7,924 bases of DNA from an archaeon (GTDB lineage: Archaea > Iainarchaeota > Iainarchaeia > Iainarchaeales > CSSED10-239). Under the pieces are notes generated by a model that did no database searches, was not told the DNA's origin, and worked only from the letters and a program-made list of their open reading frames with translations. Below are positions 28 through 7,924 of this stretch, one piece after another. Both the position numbers and the translations under genes were made by a program. The stretch spans positions 1 to 7,924 of the forward strand of contig JBAWVI010000043.1 in the NCBI GenBank assembly GCA_037147375.1, given 5' to 3'. How positions within the stretch are numbered: position 1 is the first letter of the stretch; the number at the start of each line of letters is the position of its first letter.

Positions 28-2268
28 TTACCATTGTTTGAATATTGGTGTAAACGGAAATCCAAATGAAGTTCCTTCAATTTTTCCTTCTATATAATAT
101 TGCTGTCCTGTACAATATGGTTTTGATTCTTTATCTAATGATTTATTAAGTATATATTCTGGATTATCATACCAAAATAAATTTTCTGGTTTAATTACAT
201 ATTGATATAATCCTGTCTTCGAATCAAATACTCCATTTATTTTTGCTTTGTTTCTATAAAGTGGGTACCCAGAATAGATTGGATTAACTAAGCCAAGCTT
301 ATTACCAGTTGTACTTGCATAATAATAAATATTAAGATCATTTGCATTAATGTTTCCATCAATTGTAGAGTATATTGAATAGCTTCCAGCTATCTTTGAA
401 GATGGTTCATCTAAATCACAATAATTACAAGTTAAGTTTGTAGGTGCTTCATAATTAAAATCCTGAATTCCATAAAAATTAATACTATTAACAACATCAG
501 AACTCATGTTTAATACATTAAGATTTAGATTATGTGCATAAAAATCATATTGATTAAGACCTTTTGCTCCAATAAAACATCCATTAATATTTATTTTACT
601 ATCTTCTATATTTTCTTTACGTAATAAATGTATTGTAGAAGGAAGAAAACTATTTGGTCTTAAATAATTTACAATAAAATCATTTGATGTTATTGAGTTT
701 TTAGAATTAAAACTATTAATACTTATGCTATCTTCTTTTTTATTATCAAGGTAATCAATAATTATTTTATTAACGTTTCCATCCTTTCCATCAACTGGGT
801 TCTCAAGGCATCCAGTTTTAAAACCTTTATTTCCACTTGTTAAAGTTAGATTCATATCATCTGAATTATTATAAATAAAATTTACATTTAAATCATAAAC
901 ATTTCCACCATTACCTCCAGAACCATCTTTACCAGATGCACAATCAGGAAAATCATCACATCCACACCCATGATTATACTTTGTTCCTCCATTACCACCT
1001 TTTCCAGGAGTTACATTAAAATTAAGGATACCTTTATTATAAATCAAATCTAAATTACTGTAATTAATATCTGGCCAATTTAATAATAGTCCAAAATAAA
1101 CATTTCCACCATCACGTCCACTTCCAGCAGCTGCATAATCTTTTGTAAAATTGTGTCCACCATGATCAAAACCAGTAAGTCCTCCATTCCCCCCATTACC
1201 AGTAATTAGATTAACATTTAAATTTCCATCAACATTGTTTTTTAAATTATTTAATTTATAAAATACATGCCCACCTGTTCCACCCCAACCTCCATCTCCA
1301 ACTGGTGCTTGCTTACAGGAATCCTTGTCACAAGATTCTTGACCAACACCTCCATTCCCTCCAAAACCACTTTTTATTTCTAAATTTAGGTTCCCATTAT
1401 TTTCTAAATAATTTAAGATTAAAGTTGAAGAACCACCACTATTTGGAGTCCCAGCATCTAATACATCATCTTTAGTTCCATTCCCAGTAGGAGAATAACC
1501 ATCAGCAGAATCTCCACCAATTATTGAAAGATTAAAATCATTACTATTATTTACTATACTTTGTCCAACTAAAATTGCAGGATAACCTCTTGTTAAATAC
1601 AAACAATATGAATCATTACTTACACCTTGATAGGTTTTTGCAGACTTTACTTGTATAAAACTATTTGAATCAACTGCAATCTCAATATTATTAAAATTTA
1701 ATTGAACACCATAGTATATTGTCCAATCGTTTTGTGCAACACATTTTGACTTCGTGTCTTCATTTACATCAATAGATAAAGTTCTAGTCAATCTAATTAG
1801 ATTAATATCACTTATATCTAAAATTCCAGGAGATGCATTTGAGGTTGATGTTGAATTAAATGTAATTTTTTTTTCAATTAGGGTTAATGAATCAATTTTA
1901 TTTTCTGGATTTGCATTTTTTATATAAAGTGTATTTCCAATAGTAGAGCTACTTAATTTAAAGTCAATATACACTAAAACATTTACATTAACTTTTTTTA
2001 AACCACATTTGTCATTTGTTTTAAAAACTAAATCTTTATCCTGTAAAAATAATGTATTTGATGTTGTGCTTATTAAATTGAAATCACAATCAATTAAACA
2101 ATCTGACATGAATATCTCTGTATTTGGTATTGGAGTATTATATTCATCTGATGATACACATACATCACATTCTGTAGTTGACATGTTTGAACAACTAGTT
2201 GAAGCAAATATAAATGAACTAAACATTAACATAAAACAGATTATAATTAATTTTTTTATTAAATTCAT
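28..2268 (-). CDS. Secreted Gly/Asn-rich beta-solenoid-like surface protein (746 aa); family not recognised
   Basis: Uninterrupted 746-codon ORF with ATG at 2266-2268 and TAA at 28-30. The N-terminus is a Sec-type signal peptide, MNLIKKLIIICFMLMFSSFIFA|STS. An AGGA motif (RC of tcct, 2280-2283) lies 11 nt upstream of the ATG and directly after the stop of the preceding gene, which suggests co-transcription. There are 18 Cys after the signal peptide. Five degenerate Gly-rich coils span aa 244-505. NLxLxI-type strand motifs recur through the rest of the protein. The product call is a fold-level inference only. Confidence 0.88.
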   Translation of the reverse strand: MNLIKKLIIICFMLMFSSFIFASTSCSNMSTTECDVCVSSDEYNTPIPNTEIFMSDCLIDCDFNLISTTSNTLFLQDKDLVFKTNDKCGLKKVNVNVLVYIDFKLSSSTIGNTLYIKNANPENKIDSLTLIEKKITFNSTSTSNASPGILDISDINLIRLTRTLSIDVNEDTKSKCVAQNDWTIYYGVQLNFNNIEIAVDSNSFIQVKSAKTYQGVSNDSYCLYLTRGYPAILVGQSIVNNSNDFNLSIIGGDSADGYSPTGNGTKDDVLDAGTPNSGGSSTLILNYLENNGNLNLEIKSGFGGNGGVGQESCDKDSCKQAPVGDGGWGGTGGHVFYKLNNLKNNVDGNLNVNLITGNGGNGGLTGFDHGGHNFTKDYAAAGSGRDGGNVYFGLLLNWPDINYSNLDLIYNKGILNFNVTPGKGGNGGTKYNHGCGCDDFPDCASGKDGSGGNGGNVYDLNVNFIYNNSDDMNLTLTSGNKGFKTGCLENPVDGKDGNVNKIIIDYLDNKKEDSISINSFNSKNSITSNDFIVNYLRPNSFLPSTIHLLRKENIEDSKININGCFIGAKGLNQYDFYAHNLNLNVLNMSSDVVNSINFYGIQDFNYEAPTNLTCNYCDLDEPSSKIAGSYSIYSTIDGNINANDLNIYYYASTTGNKLGLVNPIYSGYPLYRNKAKINGVFDSKTGLYQYVIKPENLFWYDNPEYILNKSLDKESKPYCTGQQYYIEGKIEGTSFGFPFTPIFKQW
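754..1539 (-). repeat. Protein-level degenerate repeat array, about 5 coils of roughly 50-65 aa, each with two Gly-rich turns
   Basis: Coil starts are DFNLSIIGG (aa 244), NLNLEIKSGFGGNGG (293), NLNVNLITGNGGNGG (349), ILNFNVTPGKGGNGG (414) and MNLTLTSGNKG (472). Each coil has a second motif: GGSSTLILNYL, GGTGGHVFYKLNNL, GRDGGNVYFGLLLN, GGNGGNVYDLNVNF and GKDGNVNKIIIDYL. The pentapeptide GGNGG occurs four times; one copy was checked against the DNA at 1348-1362 (acctccattccctcc). Confidence 0.7.
2203..2268 (-). other. Signal peptide coding segment of the 746-aa protein (aa 1-22)
   Basis: A KK-containing n-region is followed by the hydrophobic core LIIICFMLMFSSFIF and a small residue at -1 (IFA|S). 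The cleavage site is predicted by eye. Confidence 0.6.
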
Positions 2269-2286
2269 ATTAATTTCATTCCTAAC

Positions 2287-2988
2287 TTACTTAAATAACC
2301 TAAATGGTAATGATATATTTTTATCTTCATTTAAACCAGAACCATATACTAAATTAAAGAAAAACTTATATGCTTCTAAATAATTTTCAGTAATAGCTGG
2401 ATTTAAATATATAGCAAATGAATTTTTATCACTATCACTACTAATAATATTAAATATATCTAAAGAAGAAGATACAATTGTATCATCCCATTTTCTAATT
2501 GAAAGGTTAGTTGTATTTGTGGTTTCATTAAGCTCAACATAAGCTCCACCAACAACCTTAATATTTCCAAATACAACTGGATTAACTAACAGATCTTTAT
2601 CTGTAATTTGATATGGTGCTGAATTATTATATGGAATACATTCACCATTATACTTATATTCATTTAAAGAACAACTACGATAATAAGAAGCATTACAATC
2701 CCCAAAACAGCTACTATATGTTTCTCTTGGAGGAGTACAGATACCATCTCCACAATTCCAACAATCTTCTGGACAACTTGCTAATGTTTCTCCAAATCCA
2801 CAATCTGCATTACCGCATTCCCAAACTCCACAAGGTGGACTACAAACTAGATGACAATTATAAAAGATACCATGTGTTTCTATACATTGATTAACACAAT
2901 CAGTACAAGATTCTGCAGAAATAGTTCTAAAAAATAAGGTAAATATAATTAAAGTTAAGATAGTTATAATTAATTTAAAATATTTCAT
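2287..2988 (-). CDS. Secreted protein (233 aa) with an extremely Cys-rich N-terminal domain and a Cys-free C-terminal domain; family not recognised
   Basis: 233-codon ORF with ATG at 2986-2988 and TAA at 2287-2289. Signal peptide is MKYFKLIITILTLIIFTLFFRTISA|ES. There are 16 Cys between aa 28 and 117, including two tandem 4-Cys modules. No Cys occurs from aa 118 to 233. Only a weak purine-rich motif (GAGAT) precedes the ATG. Confidence 0.85.
   Translation of the reverse strand: MKYFKLIITILTLIIFTLFFRTISAESCTDCVNQCIETHGIFYNCHLVCSPPCGVWECGNADCGFGETLASCPEDCWNCGDGICTPPRETYSSCFGDCNASYYRSCSLNEYKYNGECIPYNNSAPYQITDKDLLVNPVVFGNIKVVGGAYVELNETTNTTNLSIRKWDDTIVSSSLDIFNIISSDSDKNSFAIYLNPAITENYLEAYKFFFNLVYGSGLNEDKNISLPFRLFK
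2914..2988 (-). other. Signal peptide coding segment of the 233-aa protein (aa 1-25)
   Basis: A K-containing n-region is followed by a long hydrophobic core and an ISA|E site, predicted by eye. Confidence 0.6.
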
Positions 2989-3061
2989 ATTATCTCAGTG
3001 TATATGTATATTATATCTATATTATTCGATAATATATAATATCAATATATTTATTAACCTT
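2989..3061 (-). promoter_or_regulatory. AT-rich intergenic region, probable promoter for the 233-aa and 746-aa gene pair
   Basis: This is the only sizeable non-coding gap in the window. It lies between a hairpin and the ATG at 2988. On the minus strand it contains a TATAAT hexamer (RC of 3010-3015) 21 nt upstream of the ATG, plus several TATA-like runs. I found no convincing -35 element at 17-nt spacing, and I cannot tell bacterial from archaeal promoter architecture. Confidence 0.3.
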
Positions 3062-3091
3062 TTGAAATGCAGAAAATAACCTGCATTTCAA
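3062..3091 (-). terminator. Perfect 11-bp stem and 8-nt loop hairpin downstream of the 80-aa gene; terminator-like, without a classic U-tract
   Basis: ttgaaatgcag (3062-3072) is the exact reverse complement of ctgcatttcaa (3081-3091). The loop is aaaataac. The hairpin starts 19 nt after the TAA at 3111-3113. On the minus-strand transcript the loop reads GUUAUUUU and the stem is followed by AAGGUUAAUAAAU, so there is no trailing U-run. Confidence 0.4.
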
Positions 3092-3110
3092 GAAGAATTA
3101 GTTAAGAAAC

Positions 3111-3353
3111 TTATCTTATGCTTGAAGGGCATTCTCTTGCAATACATATGCTTCCTGCTCCACAATCAGCTTGTGAAAAGCAAGATCCATTACATGTTTG
3201 TTTTAATGAATTCCAACAAATACTGTTAGATGTTTGTTTTGGTTTAGCAAAACTATCTGTGTTTGTTGTATTCCAAAACACTTGATATCCAACTAAGATT
3301 CCAAGTATAATTAGTGTGGTTGTAACTAAAAGTAACTTACTGTTTGTTTTCAT
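3111..3353 (-). CDS. Small membrane-anchored or secreted 6-Cys protein (80 aa)
   Basis: ATG at 3351-3353 and TAA at 3111-3113. A strong SD lies 7 nt upstream. The start is 27 nt after the giant ORF stop. Hydrophobic segment LLLVTTTLIILGILVGYQVFW spans aa 7-27. A polar linker follows, then C46-x7-C54-x3-C58-x5-C64-x5-C70-x4-C75. Confidence 0.75.
   Translation of the reverse strand: MKTNSKLLLVTTTLIILGILVGYQVFWNTTNTDSFAKPKQTSNSICWNSLKQTCNGSCFSQADCGAGSICIARECPSSIR
3273..3335 (-). other. N-terminal hydrophobic anchor or signal segment of the 80-aa protein (aa 7-27)
   Basis: LLLVTTTLIILGILVGYQVFW follows MKTNSK. There is no obvious AxA cleavage site, so it may be an uncleaved signal anchor. Confidence 0.55.
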
Positions 3354-3360
3354 CTAATAA

Positions 3361-3367
3361 CTCCCCC
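3361..3367 (-). promoter_or_regulatory. Shine-Dalgarno site (GGGGGAG) for the 80-aa gene
   Basis: The plus-strand ctccccc at 3361-3367 reads GGGGGAG on the minus strand, within AGAGGGGGAGTTATTAGATG. It sits 7 nt from the ATG. This G-run is conspicuous against the AT-rich background. Confidence 0.7.
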
Positions 3368-3380
3368 TCTTCTATTAAGT

Positions 3381-6300
3381 TTATTTCAATCTATCTTCTG
3401 GTCCAATTGTATAATTAACGTTATTATTATATATTGCAACTGGATTCCAAAAGAACTCTGAATATGTTCCATCTGGTGAATTTGTAACACAGATATTATT
3501 GTTTTCTATGTTATCAAATACATCCTTAATTGAATTTAAGTTAATTGCACTATTTCCTGGTAAACCAATTGATGAACTGAAGTTATCTCCAGCAATACTT
3601 AATCTTCCTTCAGTTGATTTTGAATTAAGTGAATAGTTATTACTTGATGGTGTATAGAAAGTTGATCTTAAGTATATATTTCCTTTTGAGTTAACAACAG
3701 GCCATTCAAGCTTATAGCTTGATGTTACTCTTTCATCAGGATCTGCTGCTACATCATAAGTATTATTAAATACTGAGTAGATATAATCTCCTGAATAATC
3801 AGAACCATCTCCAACTCCATTCCACTTAGTTAAGCTAACAGCACCAAACATTGGTTCAGAACTACTACTATCAACTAATTGATAATAGATAGAGAATGGT
3901 TTAAGGCTTTCATTAACTACTTTCATAAGAACTGGTGTTGGTATGCTTGGAGAAAAGATTAATCTAGTTTGATCTCCTGATTCAGAAACAACCTTAAGAA
4001 CTGATCCTCTAGATTCAACTTCTGAGTTAAGCTTAAAGAAATCTTGTTCGTTTTCAACTGTAAGATATTTTACTGGGTTAGAACCTGAATCTCCATTAGT
4101 TCTTAGATCATTATCCTTAATTTTAGTTATTAATACATTATCTCCTAAATAAGATAAGCCATAACCTTGTCTATTGTATCCATTTTCTTCATAACCTACA
4201 AATCCATCGAATGGTAGTCTATAAAATACACTATTGTCTTGTGGACCTTTAAGATATGTTAAGGTAACAAATACATTTACATCAACCTTATCTCCTGCAG
4301 TTACAAACTTCCAATCATTGTTATTAAACATTAAATCTATTCTTACATTATATAATCCAGGAGTTTTAACTTGGACTCCATTATTACTTGAAGAATATCT
4401 TAAATCAAATGTAGTATTATCTTTAAATAATGGAGATAAATAACCACGACTATAAGTTTCTGGTGAAGACATAAATGAATATGACCCAAGTCCTTGGTCA
4501 ATTGATGCTTTTCCTCCATATGCTTTATCAAATGCATCTTGGAAATTAGTATTGTAGTTGTCTGTAATTAAGTATGCATTGAATGATAATGTAGTTTTTA
4601 ATAAATTAATATCCTCTTGTGACCATTCAGATTTAACGTTGTTTGGATATTGTTCTTTATTAAACCACATATCTATGTAATCAGTTCCATTAAATTGAAC
4701 TGTTGTTGCAGGAACTTGACAACCTGTTGCTGCTGCTGGATATAATCCTAAAGTTACATTTGTATTAAATGTAACATATTCTGCAGCTCCACCAGTATAT
4801 GTAATCTTTAATGGTAAAGAATCACCAAGTATTCCTTCTGGATAAGTAAATATAATTTCACTTGTGTTATCATTTCCTATTGGTATATTTATATCTTTAT
4901 TATATGTATGATTTCCTGTTGCTACAACAGTTTCAGAAACAAACTCTCCAGTTGTTAGATCTCTTGTTTCAATTGATGCAACATCTTTATCTCCAAGACT
5001 TATTGAAACTGATCCAGGAATTTCTGCATTTGTTCTATTTTCAATAATAACTTTAATTCTTAATTTATTTACATCAGTTTGTAAATTTACATTTGATATC
5101 CCAATCTTTCCTGCTGGAATTGTATTATTTACGCTTGATGGACTTGCTGATACTTTATATGTTCCTTCAAAAATCTTATCACTTACTTGTTGATAGCTAA
5201 GTGGGCAAGAAATATTTGAACGTTGACTATCCAATAACTTCTGTGTTGAATCAATTCTATTAACAACCATTTGTGATAATTGTACAGCATCACAATATGT
5301 TTCTGTACATTTATTTGTATTACTAAAATCTTGCCAATCCCAATCAAATGAAACATTTGGAACTGCACCTGGACCAGTCTTTCCAATCTTATCAGTGTCT
5401 GTTGAACAAGAATACACATTTAAGTCAACATTTGCAATTTCTTGTGTAGGTGCTTCATGGAATTGGAATCTAAATTTACCATTTGTACCTATTGGTTTTG
5501 CATCTATAAATGCAGGATCAACATTATCAATAGTATCATCAAGTGTTGGATAGAAAATCATTGTCTTGTATATCCCAAGAGTTGATGAATTAGATAATAA
5601 TTCTTTTACAGAATCATTTAATTTAAATTTAAGAGATTTCATACCTGCCTGATCTGGCCAAATTACATTATCATATTTACATATTACATATGTATTATAT
5701 ATTAAATCTAATTTTTGTCTATTCCCTTTTGTACCTGGACACTTTGTTTTAAATAAAAAAGATGATTCTTTATTCTCAACTTCTAAACCACTACAAGTAC
5801 TTTCTCCAGTATTATACATTTGTGTCTGATACGAAGCTCCATTTAAAATAAATAATTCTTGATGAGATTTACCAGTACACTTAGCCATTTCATTACTTAT
5901 TTCTTCTTCTTTTGCTAATTTACCATATGCATACATATGTTGTGAATAATATACAAAATATCTTGAACCTGTTATATCAAAAACATTAATTAACTCATCA
6001 GAAGTTTCTTCAATTTCAGATATATTAATTTCCTTTACTACTTCTAACCCTGGATTTTTATAAACGTCTGAAACATCTAAACTATAACTCGTTAATTCTG
6101 GAGTAAAAGCAGAATATTGACTAGGTAAAATGATAGCAACAACTGCTGCAGCAACAACTGCAACACCAGCTATTATCCACCCCAACACAGGTACGGCTGC
6201 AGCTAATATTGCTCCTCCAAGTAATTCTAGAGTAATTAGAGTAATAAGTGCACCAGCAGCTGCACCAGCAAGTGTACCACCAATCATCATTCCTGCACTA

Positions 6301-7924
6301 ACACCATCAGAACCACCATTTACTAAACTTCCATCTTTATTAAATAACATTTTATCAAATGTATTCCCAGAATCACTAGCCATAAATTTACTAAATCCAC
6401 TATTATCATTTTCAGCTTTATTAGTTGCATAATCCCAAGGAGTCTTGCTTATATCCTTATTATATAACTTTACAGGCATTGTTGTTGAATCTCCTGCTAT
6501 CTCAATAAATGGATCTTCCATGTAAAGAATATCTTTAACATTTACTTTTAATGGTCTAGGTACAGTTGCAACAGCTTTATCATTGTTATTTAATGATTCT
6601 ATCTTTACTTCAATTGTGTAAGCTCCAGGTACTTCTGGCTTTCTTACTGGAATAATCTTTTCTGAATCGCTTGCATTAAATCTATACTCATAATCTCCTT
6701 CTGGTCTATCATCATAGTTTTCATATGATAATCCACTTGAACTGTCTTTCATTCCACCTGAAAACGTTACTCTAAATCTTCCTTTGTCTGCACAGGTGTT
6801 CTTAATTGTTAGATCTTTTGTTTGTCCAACTATGATTGAAGAATCAATAACAAACATTCCTGCATCTCCAATTTCTTTAGTTCCATCATAGAACTTAAAG
6901 CAATCTGAAATCTCCATAATATTTATTTCTGTATTAAGAAGGATTTCTCCATCTCCATTATTTACATAAGCAAGACCAGATTCAGTTTCAACTTGTCCAT
7001 TTAAATAAATCTTTGTTTTAACAAGTCCAAACTTTATTCCACCAGAACTATAATTTAATATACCACCATATAATCTATCTGCTTCTACTCCTTCTATTAC
7101 TGTTTTATATACCCCTTCAGCAAGTCTTATTGTGCTAGCATCTATTGTTAAATCATAATAACCATATTTATCTCCTTCTGATAAGATCTTTGCTCTAATG
7201 TTCTTTAATTTTAATGGAGTTTCTGGACTATCAAATGCTCTACAATTATTTATTATTGTAAATGAAATAGATTGAGATCCACCTGAGTTAATTGTAGTTA
7301 CCCATGGCTTAACATATCCTTGTGCTACAAGACAATTGTCTGTTGCAACACCTTTACCAACAGAGATTGTAGTTTTAATTGGAATATTAAATGGATATTT
7401 TGTTCCTCCATCTTTTGTAACGTGTCCTGTAATACTACCAAGAACAACTTGATTTTCAACAAGATTCTTTGAATCTTCTCCAGGACTCATTTTAATTTCT
7501 AAAGTTTTCTTTCCTCCTACAGGAATAATAAATGCTCCACCAGTAGTAACTTGTGAATTAAGGTATGTGTGTGTTTGAGCTACGTTTATGAAACTTGCAT
7601 AATCAAATGAGAAGTCTGTATCTCCAAATTCATTTAAAGTTAAATCATAATTAGTTAAGTTTAATATTTCAATACTTTCAGTATCTCCTGTTAAACTATT
7701 CTTGTTTATGTTTATTGCAACAGGATTATCAGTTGTTACTGGTGATGAACTAAAAAGAACTGAAACTATATTTGCATCAATTGTAATTTCTTTTCTCTCT
7801 GCAAAATATCCGCTTTTTAAAGCTTCAATAATTATAGTTTCTCCAACTACAAGTGGAGGCATGCTTAAGTTTAGTTTACCACTTGAGTCTGTGTGCTTTT
7901 CTAAAACGATTGCATTTTCATATC
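3381..7924 (-). CDS. Giant surface or membrane protein, 5'-partial (more than 1513 codons visible); multi-beta-sandwich ectodomains flank an internal Gly/Ala-rich hydrophobic hairpin
   Basis: TAA at 3381-3383. The track starts the ORF at the ATG at 7860-7862. I translated 7863-7924 on the minus strand in the same frame as YENAIVLEKHTDSSGKLNLS with no stop. No SD precedes that ATG, so the gene probably begins beyond the window. TDSSGKLNLSMPPLVVGETIIIEALKSGYFAERKEITID resembles the second half of a PEGA / carboxypeptidase-regulatory-like beta-sandwich. CARDB-like strand patterns occur at GDTESIEILNLTNYDLTL, GGSQSISFTIINNC, GQTKDLTIKNTC and LRIKVIIENRTNAEIPGSVSISLG (the last within aa 915-1040, nt 4743-5120). 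There are 14 Cys in the visible part. No catalytic motif was recognised. Confidence 0.9.
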   Translation of the reverse strand, partial: YENAIVLEKHTDSSGKLNLSMPPLVVGETIIIEALKSGYFAERKEITIDANIVSVLFSSSPVTTDNPVAININKNSLTGDTESIEILNLTNYDLTLNEFGDTDFSFDYASFINVAQTHTYLNSQVTTGGAFIIPVGGKKTLEIKMSPGEDSKNLVENQVVLGSITGHVTKDGGTKYPFNIPIKTTISVGKGVATDNCLVAQGYVKPWVTTINSGGSQSISFTIINNCRAFDSPETPLKLKNIRAKILSEGDKYGYYDLTIDASTIRLAEGVYKTVIEGVEADRLYGGILNYSSGGIKFGLVKTKIYLNGQVETESGLAYVNNGDGEILLNTEINIMEISDCFKFYDGTKEIGDAGMFVIDSSIIVGQTKDLTIKNTCADKGRFRVTFSGGMKDSSSGLSYENYDDRPEGDYEYRFNASDSEKIIPVRKPEVPGAYTIEVKIESLNNNDKAVATVPRPLKVNVKDILYMEDPFIEIAGDSTTMPVKLYNKDISKTPWDYATNKAENDNSGFSKFMASDSGNTFDKMLFNKDGSLVNGGSDGVSAGMMIGGTLAGAAAGALITLITLELLGGAILAAAVPVLGWIIAGVAVVAAAVVAIILPSQYSAFTPELTSYSLDVSDVYKNPGLEVVKEINISEIEETSDELINVFDITGSRYFVYYSQHMYAYGKLAKEEEISNEMAKCTGKSHQELFILNGASYQTQMYNTGESTCSGLEVENKESSFLFKTKCPGTKGNRQKLDLIYNTYVICKYDNVIWPDQAGMKSLKFKLNDSVKELLSNSSTLGIYKTMIFYPTLDDTIDNVDPAFIDAKPIGTNGKFRFQFHEAPTQEIANVDLNVYSCSTDTDKIGKTGPGAVPNVSFDWDWQDFSNTNKCTETYCDAVQLSQMVVNRIDSTQKLLDSQRSNISCPLSYQQVSDKIFEGTYKVSASPSSVNNTIPAGKIGISNVNLQTDVNKLRIKVIIENRTNAEIPGSVSISLGDKDVASIETRDLTTGEFVSETVVATGNHTYNKDINIPIGNDNTSEIIFTYPEGILGDSLPLKITYTGGAAEYVTFNTNVTLGLYPAAATGCQVPATTVQFNGTDYIDMWFNKEQYPNNVKSEWSQEDINLLKTTLSFNAYLITDNYNTNFQDAFDKAYGGKASIDQGLGSYSFMSSPETYSRGYLSPLFKDNTTFDLRYSSSNNGVQVKTPGLYNVRIDLMFNNNDWKFVTAGDKVDVNVFVTLTYLKGPQDNSVFYRLPFDGFVGYEENGYNRQGYGLSYLGDNVLITKIKDNDLRTNGDSGSNPVKYLTVENEQDFFKLNSEVESRGSVLKVVSESGDQTRLIFSPSIPTPVLMKVVNESLKPFSIYYQLVDSSSSEPMFGAVSLTKWNGVGDGSDYSGDYIYSVFNNTYDVAADPDERVTSSYKLEWPVVNSKGNIYLRSTFYTPSSNNYSLNSKSTEGRLSIAGDNFSSSIGLPGNSAINLNSIKDVFDNIENNNICVTNSPDGTYSEFFWNPVAIYNNNVNYTIGPEDRLK
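6123..6299 (-). other. Internal 59-residue hydrophobic Gly/Ala-rich segment (aa 522-580), predicted transmembrane helical hairpin
   Basis: The segment is SAGMMIGGTLAGAAAGALITLITLELLGGAILAAAVPVLGWIIAGVAVVAAAVVAIILP. Codon positions were verified against the DNA: AGT for S522 at 6297-6299 and CCT for P580 at 6123-6125. The only charged residue is E545. GxxxG spacings occur at G524/G528 and at G529/G533/G537. Confidence 0.7.

Follow-up and report, generated by a model that had tools for sequence, protein, structure and literature searches.

Cryo-electron tomography (cryo-ET) of cultivated DPANN archaea, which are abundant, ultra-small and mostly host-dependent, depicts attachment organelles and cytoplasmic bridges, and the proteins involved in attachment and bridging are stated as not yet known (PMC11420986). 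In the present study, we describe a stretch of archaeal DNA of 7,924 nucleotides (nt; contig JBAWVI010000043.1 of assembly GCA_037147375.1, hereafter the window) that contains four co-directional minus-strand genes, designated G1, G2, G3 and G4. At least nine genes over ~40 kb make up a conserved chromosomal island in Iainarchaeota/Diapherotrites (DPANN), of which the window is the middle. The island genes are arranged in the order gA, gB, gC, G1, one or two genes for small proteins that are secreted or anchored, G4, G5 and, in a close relative and in Forterrea, two small proteins with multiple transmembrane (TM) segments. What does such an island build? On balance, we favor an adhesin-like apparatus for cell-surface contact or adhesion that would serve host contact. 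The descriptive core of this account (a chromosomal, archaeal, extracytoplasmic and conserved island) is close to certain, and the functional assignment is proposed from sequence.

The island has been flagged once in the literature and is otherwise uncharacterised. Probst and Banfield (2018) reported the complete genome of Candidatus (Ca.) Forterrea with a 42-kbp region that encodes five large (>1,800 amino acids, aa) membrane-anchored proteins (PMC5905446). Forterrea lacks lipid, nucleotide and vitamin synthesis and was inferred to be host-dependent (PMC5905446). The Forterrea region appears to be the island described here, a match made by description, as PMC5905446 gives no coordinates. On the Forterrea chromosome, the gene order of the window lineage recurs: G1 (2466 aa) is followed by the G3 core (120 aa), G4 (809 aa) and then G5 (2147 aa), with G1 ~40% and G4 ~30% identical to the window proteins. 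The Forterrea locus forms one co-directional block with two giants of >1,800 aa (G1 and G5), a 1361-aa open reading frame (ORF) at the gB position and a 964-aa ORF at the gC position. Relative to Forterrea, the window lineage adds G2 and a 16-cysteine head on G3. Cell-cell interaction was proposed for the Forterrea region, as it is here, in one sentence and a cartoon (PMC5905446). That account describes neither the small genes and the cysteines nor the head module common to several of the proteins, the motif at their N-termini or the hydrophobic hairpin.

The best-studied giant surface proteins of DPANN archaea are the SPEARE proteins of Nanohaloarchaeota, which range from 3,000 to 8,500 aa (Hamm et al. 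2019, PMC6642349). Like the island giants, SPEARE proteins are mostly extracytoplasmic and contain a single TM segment. Both sets account for several percent of their genomes, and host attachment has been proposed for both (PMC6642349). However, the serine-protease, laminin-G, toxin-like and cytoplasmic restriction-endonuclease domains of SPEARE were found in none of the island proteins, and no sequence relationship was detected between the two sets. In bacteria, the Giant1-5 proteins of Apilactobacillus kunkeei are likewise encoded by five consecutive giant extracellular-protein genes that occupy ~5-6% of a small genome (PMC12863079). Their lengths of 3,000-8,000 aa and their unrelated sequences limit the comparison to analogy.

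A further likeness is found with the bacterial fibrillar adhesins of the MSCRAMM type (FnBPA, ClfB, SdrD, Cna, antigen I/II, PrgB and Bap), which share with the island giants a stalk of immunoglobulin (Ig)/prealbumin domains, an anchor and a distal Ig-like head. In G1, this stalk is found outside the part of the protein that the window covers. Unlike these adhesins, the island is archaeal, its giants use an N-terminal TM anchor instead of LPXTG/sortase, and its head is an unannotated, cysteine-rich and presumably disulfide-rich module of ~900 aa in a set of paralogues with secreted partners. Pfam and PDB profile searches detected no sequence homology between the island proteins and MSCRAMM adhesive domains.

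Chromosomal island and its borders

The island is retained across a range of archaeal genomes. G1 homologues of 2438-2525 aa come from metagenome-assembled genomes (MAGs) labelled archaeon or Ca. Diapherotrites, where the contigs that encode them reach 978 kb, and a scan of GTDB species genomes located the G1 gene in Ca. Forterrea multitransposorum, Ca. Iainarchaeum, Ca. ainarchaeum and several archaeal MAGs. The Forterrea copy resides on a complete chromosome of 839,632 bp. Records with island genes are named Ca. Forterrea, Ca. Iainarchaeum, Ca. ainarchaeum or Ca. Diapherotrites, together with one Micrarchaeota label. In the NCBI taxonomy, Forterrea belongs to Ca. Iainarchaeota of the kingdom Nanobdellati, and hence to DPANN.

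The gene order recurs on the complete chromosome of Forterrea as well as on contigs that measure 291-978 kb. Orthologues of G1, the G3 core, G4 and G5 follow one another in the same order in loci L002, L003, L005/L016, L007-L015 and L026-L029. In BLASTP searches, G4 homologues were located downstream of G1 in 12 loci, normally with one small gene between them. The large genes of the island are as follows:

gA, ~2390 aa, the first giant of the island
gB, ~1550-1760 aa, with cadherin domains in a close relative
gC, ~980-1020 aa, between gB and G1
Full-length G1, ~2480 aa, after gC
G4 homologues, ~720-830 aa, after the small gene or genes downstream of G1
G5, ~1980-2150 aa, after G4

The fifth gene is directly visible on the 14.3-kb ENA contig L001, of which the window corresponds to the first 7924 nt and in which the G4 sequence is identical. 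Downstream of G4, L001 encodes co-directional G5 (at least 2075 aa), whose N-terminus is cytoplasmic and which also has a TM anchor and a CarboxypepD_reg domain. The original prediction, made from the window sequence by itself, had taken the four genes for a dedicated envelope, adhesion or cell-contact module of an AT-rich, probably uncultivated prokaryote. The reading as an extracytoplasmic envelope or cell-contact module of such an organism was supported (~29% GC; an Iainarchaeota/Diapherotrites archaeon of the DPANN group), as was the expectation of conserved synteny in related genomes. The four genes are not the unit, however, given that the island contains at least nine genes with paralogous giants on both sides of the window.

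The borders of the island also bear on a second explanation, which the original prediction had left standing, namely that the genes are a structural or entry module of a virus or another mobile element. The large beta-rich secreted products, a loose and non-significant tailspike likeness of G4 and a weak tape-measure PHROG match on the hydrophobic stretch of G1 (E 0.046) are the observations in its favor. However, the island occupies a fixed chromosomal place beside HU, HisRS and other cellular genes. It is carried by all related MAGs examined, on contigs as long as 978 kb, and by the complete genome of Forterrea. Moreover, no relatives were found in IMG/VR or GenBank phages, no PHROG match was significant, and no integrase, capsid or terminase gene occurs in the ~45 kb context. 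A viral or mobile-element origin is thus essentially excluded. The cellular genes downstream of the island begin with HU in both the close relative and Forterrea; HU is followed by HisRS in one genome and by a DUF1846 protein and a periplasmic-binding protein in the other.

After G5, the island ends with a pair of multi-TM proteins of only 113-128 aa (L002 26551-26937 and 26965-27306; L005 18888-19614), and one of them has a His-rich C-terminal tail. The pair was found in two of the three genomes with a visible downstream end, the close relative (L002/L006) and Forterrea. These proteins may be membrane partners of the giants.

The upstream edge was reached through one metagenome scan, which extends to two genes past gA. 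Just upstream of the island lies a protein of 581 or 588 aa (L022 2358-4103; L025 2307-4073) with a type IV pilin-like N-terminus, KKGFSLFTALVSLLLISISL, and weak, sub-threshold matches to the minor pilins ComGF and ComGE (E 0.004-0.05). It may link the island to pilus-like machinery further upstream. The next ORF (L025 8-2233) encodes a 741-aa protein with Pro/Thr-rich linkers and a C-terminus that resembles NlpC/P60 by eye (GDCLKFAR ... SHVVLYVG), with no Pfam or NCBIfam match. At the corresponding place in L022, the ORF has 538 aa and stops before the matching C-terminal region. In the MAG of the window itself, fragment P0178 (NCBI WCF78_04980, 504 aa, on a 1514-nt contig) is 49% identical to the C-terminus of the relative's gA. 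Based on this fragment, the upstream part of the island is probably present in the window's organism and split across contigs.

The window and L001 differ at 25 positions, which fall in three short patches (7060-7185, 5397-5453 and 2530-2610). The first two patches lie within G1 and the third within the G3 core, a pattern that resembles strain-level recombination or an assembly mosaic. Localised patches of single-nucleotide polymorphisms have been reported in Forterrea (PMC5905446).

Giant proteins, their head and the hydrophobic stretch

An ORF scan with re-translation locates the four genes of the window, which has a GC content of 22-35% (mean ~29%), as follows:

3381-7922, minus strand: G1, ORF open to the window end, at least 1513 aa
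3111-3353, minus strand: G2, 80 aa
2287-2988, minus strand: G3, 233 aa
28-2268, minus strand: G4, 746 aa

The G1/G2, G2/G3 and G3/G4 gaps measure 27, 122 and 18 nt, respectively. In a Kyte-Doolittle scan, aa 545-607 of G1 form an internal hydrophobic stretch and aa 3-27 of G2 an N-terminal anchor, whereas the N-termini of G3 (aa 1-26) and G4 (aa 1-27) resemble signal peptides. The cysteine counts are 14 in the visible part of G1, 6 in G2, 16 in G3 and 19 in G4, of which one lies inside the signal peptide of G4, leaving 18 outside. The original prediction had described the same layout, gaps, hydrophobic signals and counts, and it had interpreted the even cysteine numbers as a sign of disulfide pairing. 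Even counts are weak evidence by themselves because four of them would occur by chance with a probability of ~1/16. The interpretation is backed by conservation: all 14 cysteines of G1 are invariant in an alignment of G1 and 12 homologues, compared with 10.1% invariant columns overall, and all 16 cysteines of the G3 head are kept in both relatives that have this head. There is therefore good support for a structural role of the cysteines in G1 and in the G3 head, and partial support in G4, and disulfides would be the most natural reading of cysteine conservation combined with export signals. In G1, pairing would be expected between cysteines that are neighbours in the sequence, namely 197-227, 341-377, 682-710, 728-748, 839-872, 877-906 and 1068-1478.

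None of G1-G4 yielded a significant Pfam, NCBIfam, PHROG or PADLOC match, and PDB sequence searches (with profiles of G1 and G4 and single sequences of G2 and G3) returned nothing below E 0.08. The window also contains no tRNA, Rfam family or tandem repeat. The initial impression of proteins without a recognisable family holds for the window part, but full-length G1 homologues contain CarboxypepD_reg and SpaA domains in their N-terminal part. The window G1 is the C-terminal 1513 aa, or the last three fifths, of a ~2480-aa protein, and its homologues are 33-65% identical to it. The missing N-terminal ~960 aa, predicted to comprise a cytoplasmic motif, a TM anchor and a CarboxypepD_reg/SpaA stalk, would lie beyond the contig end. 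The N-terminal TM anchor of the G1 homologues agrees with the earlier description of G1 as a giant anchored scaffold.

The other giants share this architecture. Full-length G1, G5, gA and gB have N-terminal TM segments, and in most of them a common cytoplasmic motif stands before the segment. In the close relative (L002, L022), gA and G1 match CarboxypepD_reg and SpaA above the Pfam threshold, gA also matches SdrD_B, and gB matches cadherin domains (4.8e-11, likewise above threshold). Prealbumin/Ig-type stalk domains, drawn from CarboxypepD_reg, SpaA and SdrD_B, exceed the Pfam cut-offs in gB as well as in full-length G1 and gA. The CarboxypepD_reg match of the relative's G5 is sub-threshold.

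The shared motif spans ~40 aa directly before the TM anchor of gA, gB, G1 and G5 and reads ~..Y..mEDkYy.F.e+.gl.KitD.iDK..PsF. The N-termini that bear it start at L022 4286, L022 11503, L002 10001 and L002 20198 (gA, gB, G1 and G5) and at L001 8075. In G5, a Lys/Glu-rich cytoplasmic extension of ~130 aa precedes the motif. The motif may be a dedicated targeting or docking signal.

Within the window, three features of G1 can be distinguished:

6102-6290, minus strand: hydrophobic Gly/Ala-rich stretch, aa 545-607, from the Kyte-Doolittle scan
3384-6101, minus strand: head module, aa ~608-1513, ~900 aa, common to gC (~1000 aa) and G5
4743-5159, minus strand: beta-sandwich domain in the head, aa ~922-1060, the best-modelled part

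A phmmer search with the head (aa 600-1513) against 1.84 billion representatives retrieved 356 matches at E<=1e-3, including 156 at E<=1e-30. The full-length matches listed are proteins of either ~1000 or 2000-3100 aa, and the alignment extends to their C-terminus. Ten matches that were looked up are labelled hypothetical, SpaA-related or carboxypeptidase-regulatory-like and come from Diapherotrites/ainarchaeum MAGs, one of them labelled Micrarchaeota. By these matches, the G1 head defines an unannotated family of 356 representative clusters. Inside the island, the C-terminal ~700 aa of G1 are paralogous to gC (BLASTP E 3e-34 to 8e-39) and weakly paralogous to the C-terminus of G5 (6e-5; 3e-4 in two collinear segments).

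AlphaFold2 (AF2) yields a model of moderate quality for the head (pLDDT 72, pTM 0.45). In a Foldseek search against the PDB, 48 matches fall below 1e-3, all of them domain-level beta-sandwich matches with a whole-model TM-score of ~0.1. They are mainly Gram-positive adhesins (FnBPA, ClfB, SdrD/E, Cna, antigen I/II, PrgB and Bap; probabilities mostly 0.6-0.99), followed by Cry protoxin, glycosidases that bear carbohydrate-binding modules, and integrin alpha, and no enzyme fold stands out among these PDB matches. The beta-sandwich domain corresponds to model residues 323-461 with a pLDDT of ~80-91. Only one other stretch of the protein varies more; identity in this domain falls to 0.29 at P0003 positions 1901-2000. 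Otherwise, G1 is evenly conserved along its length, at a mean pairwise identity of 0.35-0.50 per column with two dips.

The deepest dip is the Gly/Ala-rich stretch in front of the head, where identity drops to 0.20, the lowest value in the protein. A strongly hydrophobic segment is nonetheless kept at this position in 11 of 13 G1 homologues, many of which display small-xxx-small (glycine-zipper-like) spacing. In gC, a comparable hydrophobic segment rich in Gly lies between the signal peptide and the same head; therefore, the hydrophobic hairpin and the head behave as one unit. We regard the stretch as a putative two-pass membrane hairpin or membrane-inserting segment. A 100-aa plus-strand ORF at 6130-6432, rich in Ala, Thr and Pro, is the antisense shadow of this stretch, and the remaining plus-strand ORFs, which lie wholly or largely within the minus-strand genes, are most likely spurious.

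These properties invite a third explanation, in which the hairpin and head of G1, and of gC, enter the membrane of a partner as a pore or bridge for metabolites while G3 and G4 form a receptor-binding tip. Retained hydrophobicity in the 11 homologues despite sequence variation, the small-xxx-small spacing and the joint occurrence of the Gly-rich stretch and head in gC would all fit such a membrane-penetrating device. It would also answer to two reports: the proteins of DPANN-host bridges are not known (PMC11420986), and a supply of lipids and nucleotides by a host has been inferred for Forterrea (PMC5905446). However, this account is purely inferential, and a two-pass hairpin in the archaeon's own membrane would explain the same data. 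In addition, two of the 13 homologues have no hydrophobic stretch, and no likeness of the head to pore formers or fusogens was found beyond the non-specific beta-sandwich match to Cry protoxin. We consider such a device quite improbable.

Predicted secreted partners and the lineage-specific accessory

G3 consists of two parts that differ in their conservation. A conserved core of ~110 aa (aa ~128-233, nt 2290-2607) begins near a PxVFGxIK motif and ends in ...N(I/L)SLxF(R/K)L.K, which in the window takes the form NISLPFRLxK. Of the 12 tabulated loci, 11 encode the core between G1 and G4, as do L026, L027 and L029, and 12 such genes were aligned. Residues P137, F140, G141 and F229 of G3 are invariant. 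In front of the core, the window protein has a signal peptide and a 16-cysteine head (aa ~27-117, nt 2638-2910) with CGxxxC...E...CPxDC-type repeats. The head differs between lineages. The 16-cysteine form occurs in the window, L029 and L027; L007 has a 29-cysteine region, and L014 has a cysteine-containing N-terminal extension (7 cysteines in the whole protein). The head of L026 is a chitobiase-type CHB_HEX_C_1/Fn3_assoc domain, and L002, L012, L013 and L016 have no head. The combination of a constant core with swapped heads suggests an adaptor that presents a variable ligand-binding tip. The original prediction had included a cysteine-rich adaptor; the cysteine-rich part of G3 is a replaceable head, not the conserved part. 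No evidence was found for a kinship between the G3 core and the C-terminal domain of G4, as hhalign of the two families matched only the signal peptide and cysteine-rich N-termini.

Behind its signal peptide, G4 has an N-terminal beta region, followed by repeats rich in Gly and a C-terminal domain. The G-x-GG-x-GG motifs are located at aa 301, 324, 357, 422 and 449 (nt ~649-1581). The C-terminal domain (nt 31-597) contains the four invariant cysteines C564, C614, C617 and C719, which together with C26 make up the five invariant positions among the 19 cysteines. A word-indexed search retrieved 11 G4 homologues, and their alignment has no conserved stretch of 7-10 residues. The AF2 model of G4 (pLDDT 78, pTM 0.77) is all-beta, with repeated hairpin units separated by Gly-rich loops. 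Foldseek searches of this model against the PDB and BFVD returned no significant match; the best PDB matches were SufD, EtpA and tailspikes (E 0.05-1, TM-score <=0.19), and the best BFVD match had an E of 0.05. The earlier description of G4 as a solenoid is a fair account of the all-beta repeat model, although no known solenoid fold was matched significantly.

More specific folds were considered for G4. A right-handed parallel beta-helix of the tailspike, pectate-lyase or TPS-domain type was rejected for want of a significant structural superposition. An RTX calcium-binding beta-roll was rejected as well: there is no HemolysinCabind Pfam match, and the motifs lie 23-65 residues apart and are not tandem nonamers. 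A resemblance of the Gly motifs to Obg/polyglycine-II is a lead, not a result, with matches of E 0.18 (GTP1_OBG) and E 0.81 (1lnz) only.

G2 was found only in the window lineage. It combines an N-terminal membrane anchor with a C-terminal six-cysteine mini-domain, C-x7-C-x3-C-x5-C-x5-C-x4-C. The only homologue found, in L029, is identical at 77 of 80 positions with all cysteines kept, and BLASTP found no homologue in loci L001-L025. The two genes differ by five synonymous and three non-synonymous codon changes, a divergence too small for a test of purifying selection. Sub-threshold matches are limited to the DX module (E 0.039), Toxin_11 (E 0.28) and PDB 1ixt (E 0.94). Residues 53-76 of G2, TCNGSCFSQADCGAGSICIARECP, display a weak and non-significant likeness to the spasmodic (P-superfamily) conotoxins gm9a and tx9a. 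G2 had been predicted to be a tiny Cys-knot-like partner in the module, which was not supported: a homologue was found solely in the closest relative, and the knottin likeness is not significant. G2 and the cysteine-rich half of G3 appear to be lineage-specific decorations. The N-termini of G2, G3 and G4 are of the ordinary anchor or signal-peptide type, and none of them is a type IV pilin (class III signal peptide) N-terminus.

The 122-nt gap that follows G2 contains one further feature:

3062-3091, minus strand: RNA hairpin directly after the G2 stop codon, minimum free energy -16.8 kcal/mol, z -5.6

Its stem of 12 bp is near-perfect, and the hairpin is kept in L029 with changes only in or next to the loop. 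An AT-rich, TATA-like tract lies between the hairpin and G3. The hairpin may mark where a transcript ends or is processed within the block.

Proposed contact apparatus or envelope scaffold

How could the island products work together? We propose that the giants would be inserted into the membrane by an N-terminal signal-anchor behind the shared cytoplasmic motif, project long stalks of prealbumin/Ig-like domains and end in the disulfide-stabilised ~900-aa head module. G3 and G4 would be exported by their Sec-type signal peptides and dock onto these heads. G3 would dock through its conserved C-terminal core and display an exchangeable, lineage-specific head, and in the window lineage the 16-cysteine head would set ligand specificity. 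The Gly/Ala-rich hairpin before the G1 head would either re-anchor the head in the archaeon's own membrane or insert into the membrane of a partner. G2 would be a recent, lineage-specific, membrane-anchored accessory. Export, disulfide pairing, the assembly of G1, G3, G4 and G5 and a role in adhesion or host contact are all predictions from the sequences and their arrangement. The organisms that carry the island are tiny Iainarchaeota that are probably symbiotic.

Several observations weigh against a contact apparatus. Family searches recognised no adhesive or ligand-binding domain in G1-G4, and the Foldseek likeness of the head to adhesins is at the generic beta-sandwich level only (whole-model TM-score ~0.1). 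N-glycosylation sequons are not enriched in G1-G4 (z 0.1 to 1.6). The hydrophobic stretch is missing in two of the 13 G1 homologues. The physical interaction of G1, G3, G4 and G5 is a prediction from synteny. Finally, the giants are evenly conserved at ~40-50% pairwise identity per column, a pattern that suits a structural scaffold better than a protein for host recognition, which would evolve fast.

The last point leads to the main rival explanation, in which the island encodes the main structural proteins of the cell envelope, such as an S-layer-like coat or a spacer of a pseudo-periplasm. Even conservation and the invariant cysteines of G1 are as expected for a load-bearing structure, and the gene order is the same in every related genome examined. 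Among archaeal envelope proteins, too, one terminal TM anchor occurs together with long Ig-like stalks. However, S-layers normally consist of one or two abundant proteins of moderate size and not of five giant paralogues with secreted accessories. Furthermore, the cadherin domain of gB and the head-swapping G3 adaptor point to ligand binding, and G1-G4 have no S-layer family match in Pfam or NCBIfam. An outlay of ~5% of a minimal genome would also suit an envelope scaffold (PMC5905446). Taken together, we hold an envelope scaffold to be unlikely and prefer the contact apparatus.

The contact apparatus could be extended into a bolder form. The island would then be DPANN hardware for both docking onto and opening the host, in which G3 and G4 act as an exchangeable receptor tip on the heads of G1 and G5, and the hairpin of G1 and gC forms the pore or bridge. 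We consider this combination very improbable.

The present result is a computational refinement of a known region and not a new principle. The island is the largest conserved surface-protein investment of Iainarchaeota genomes, at ~5% of the Forterrea genome, and holds protein families that are absent from Pfam and NCBIfam. Its newly defined parts are the shared head, the small adaptor with swappable heads, the Gly-rich G4 protein, the hydrophobic hairpin and the N-terminal anchor motif. These parts provide targets for cryo-ET labelling, metaproteomics and complex prediction.

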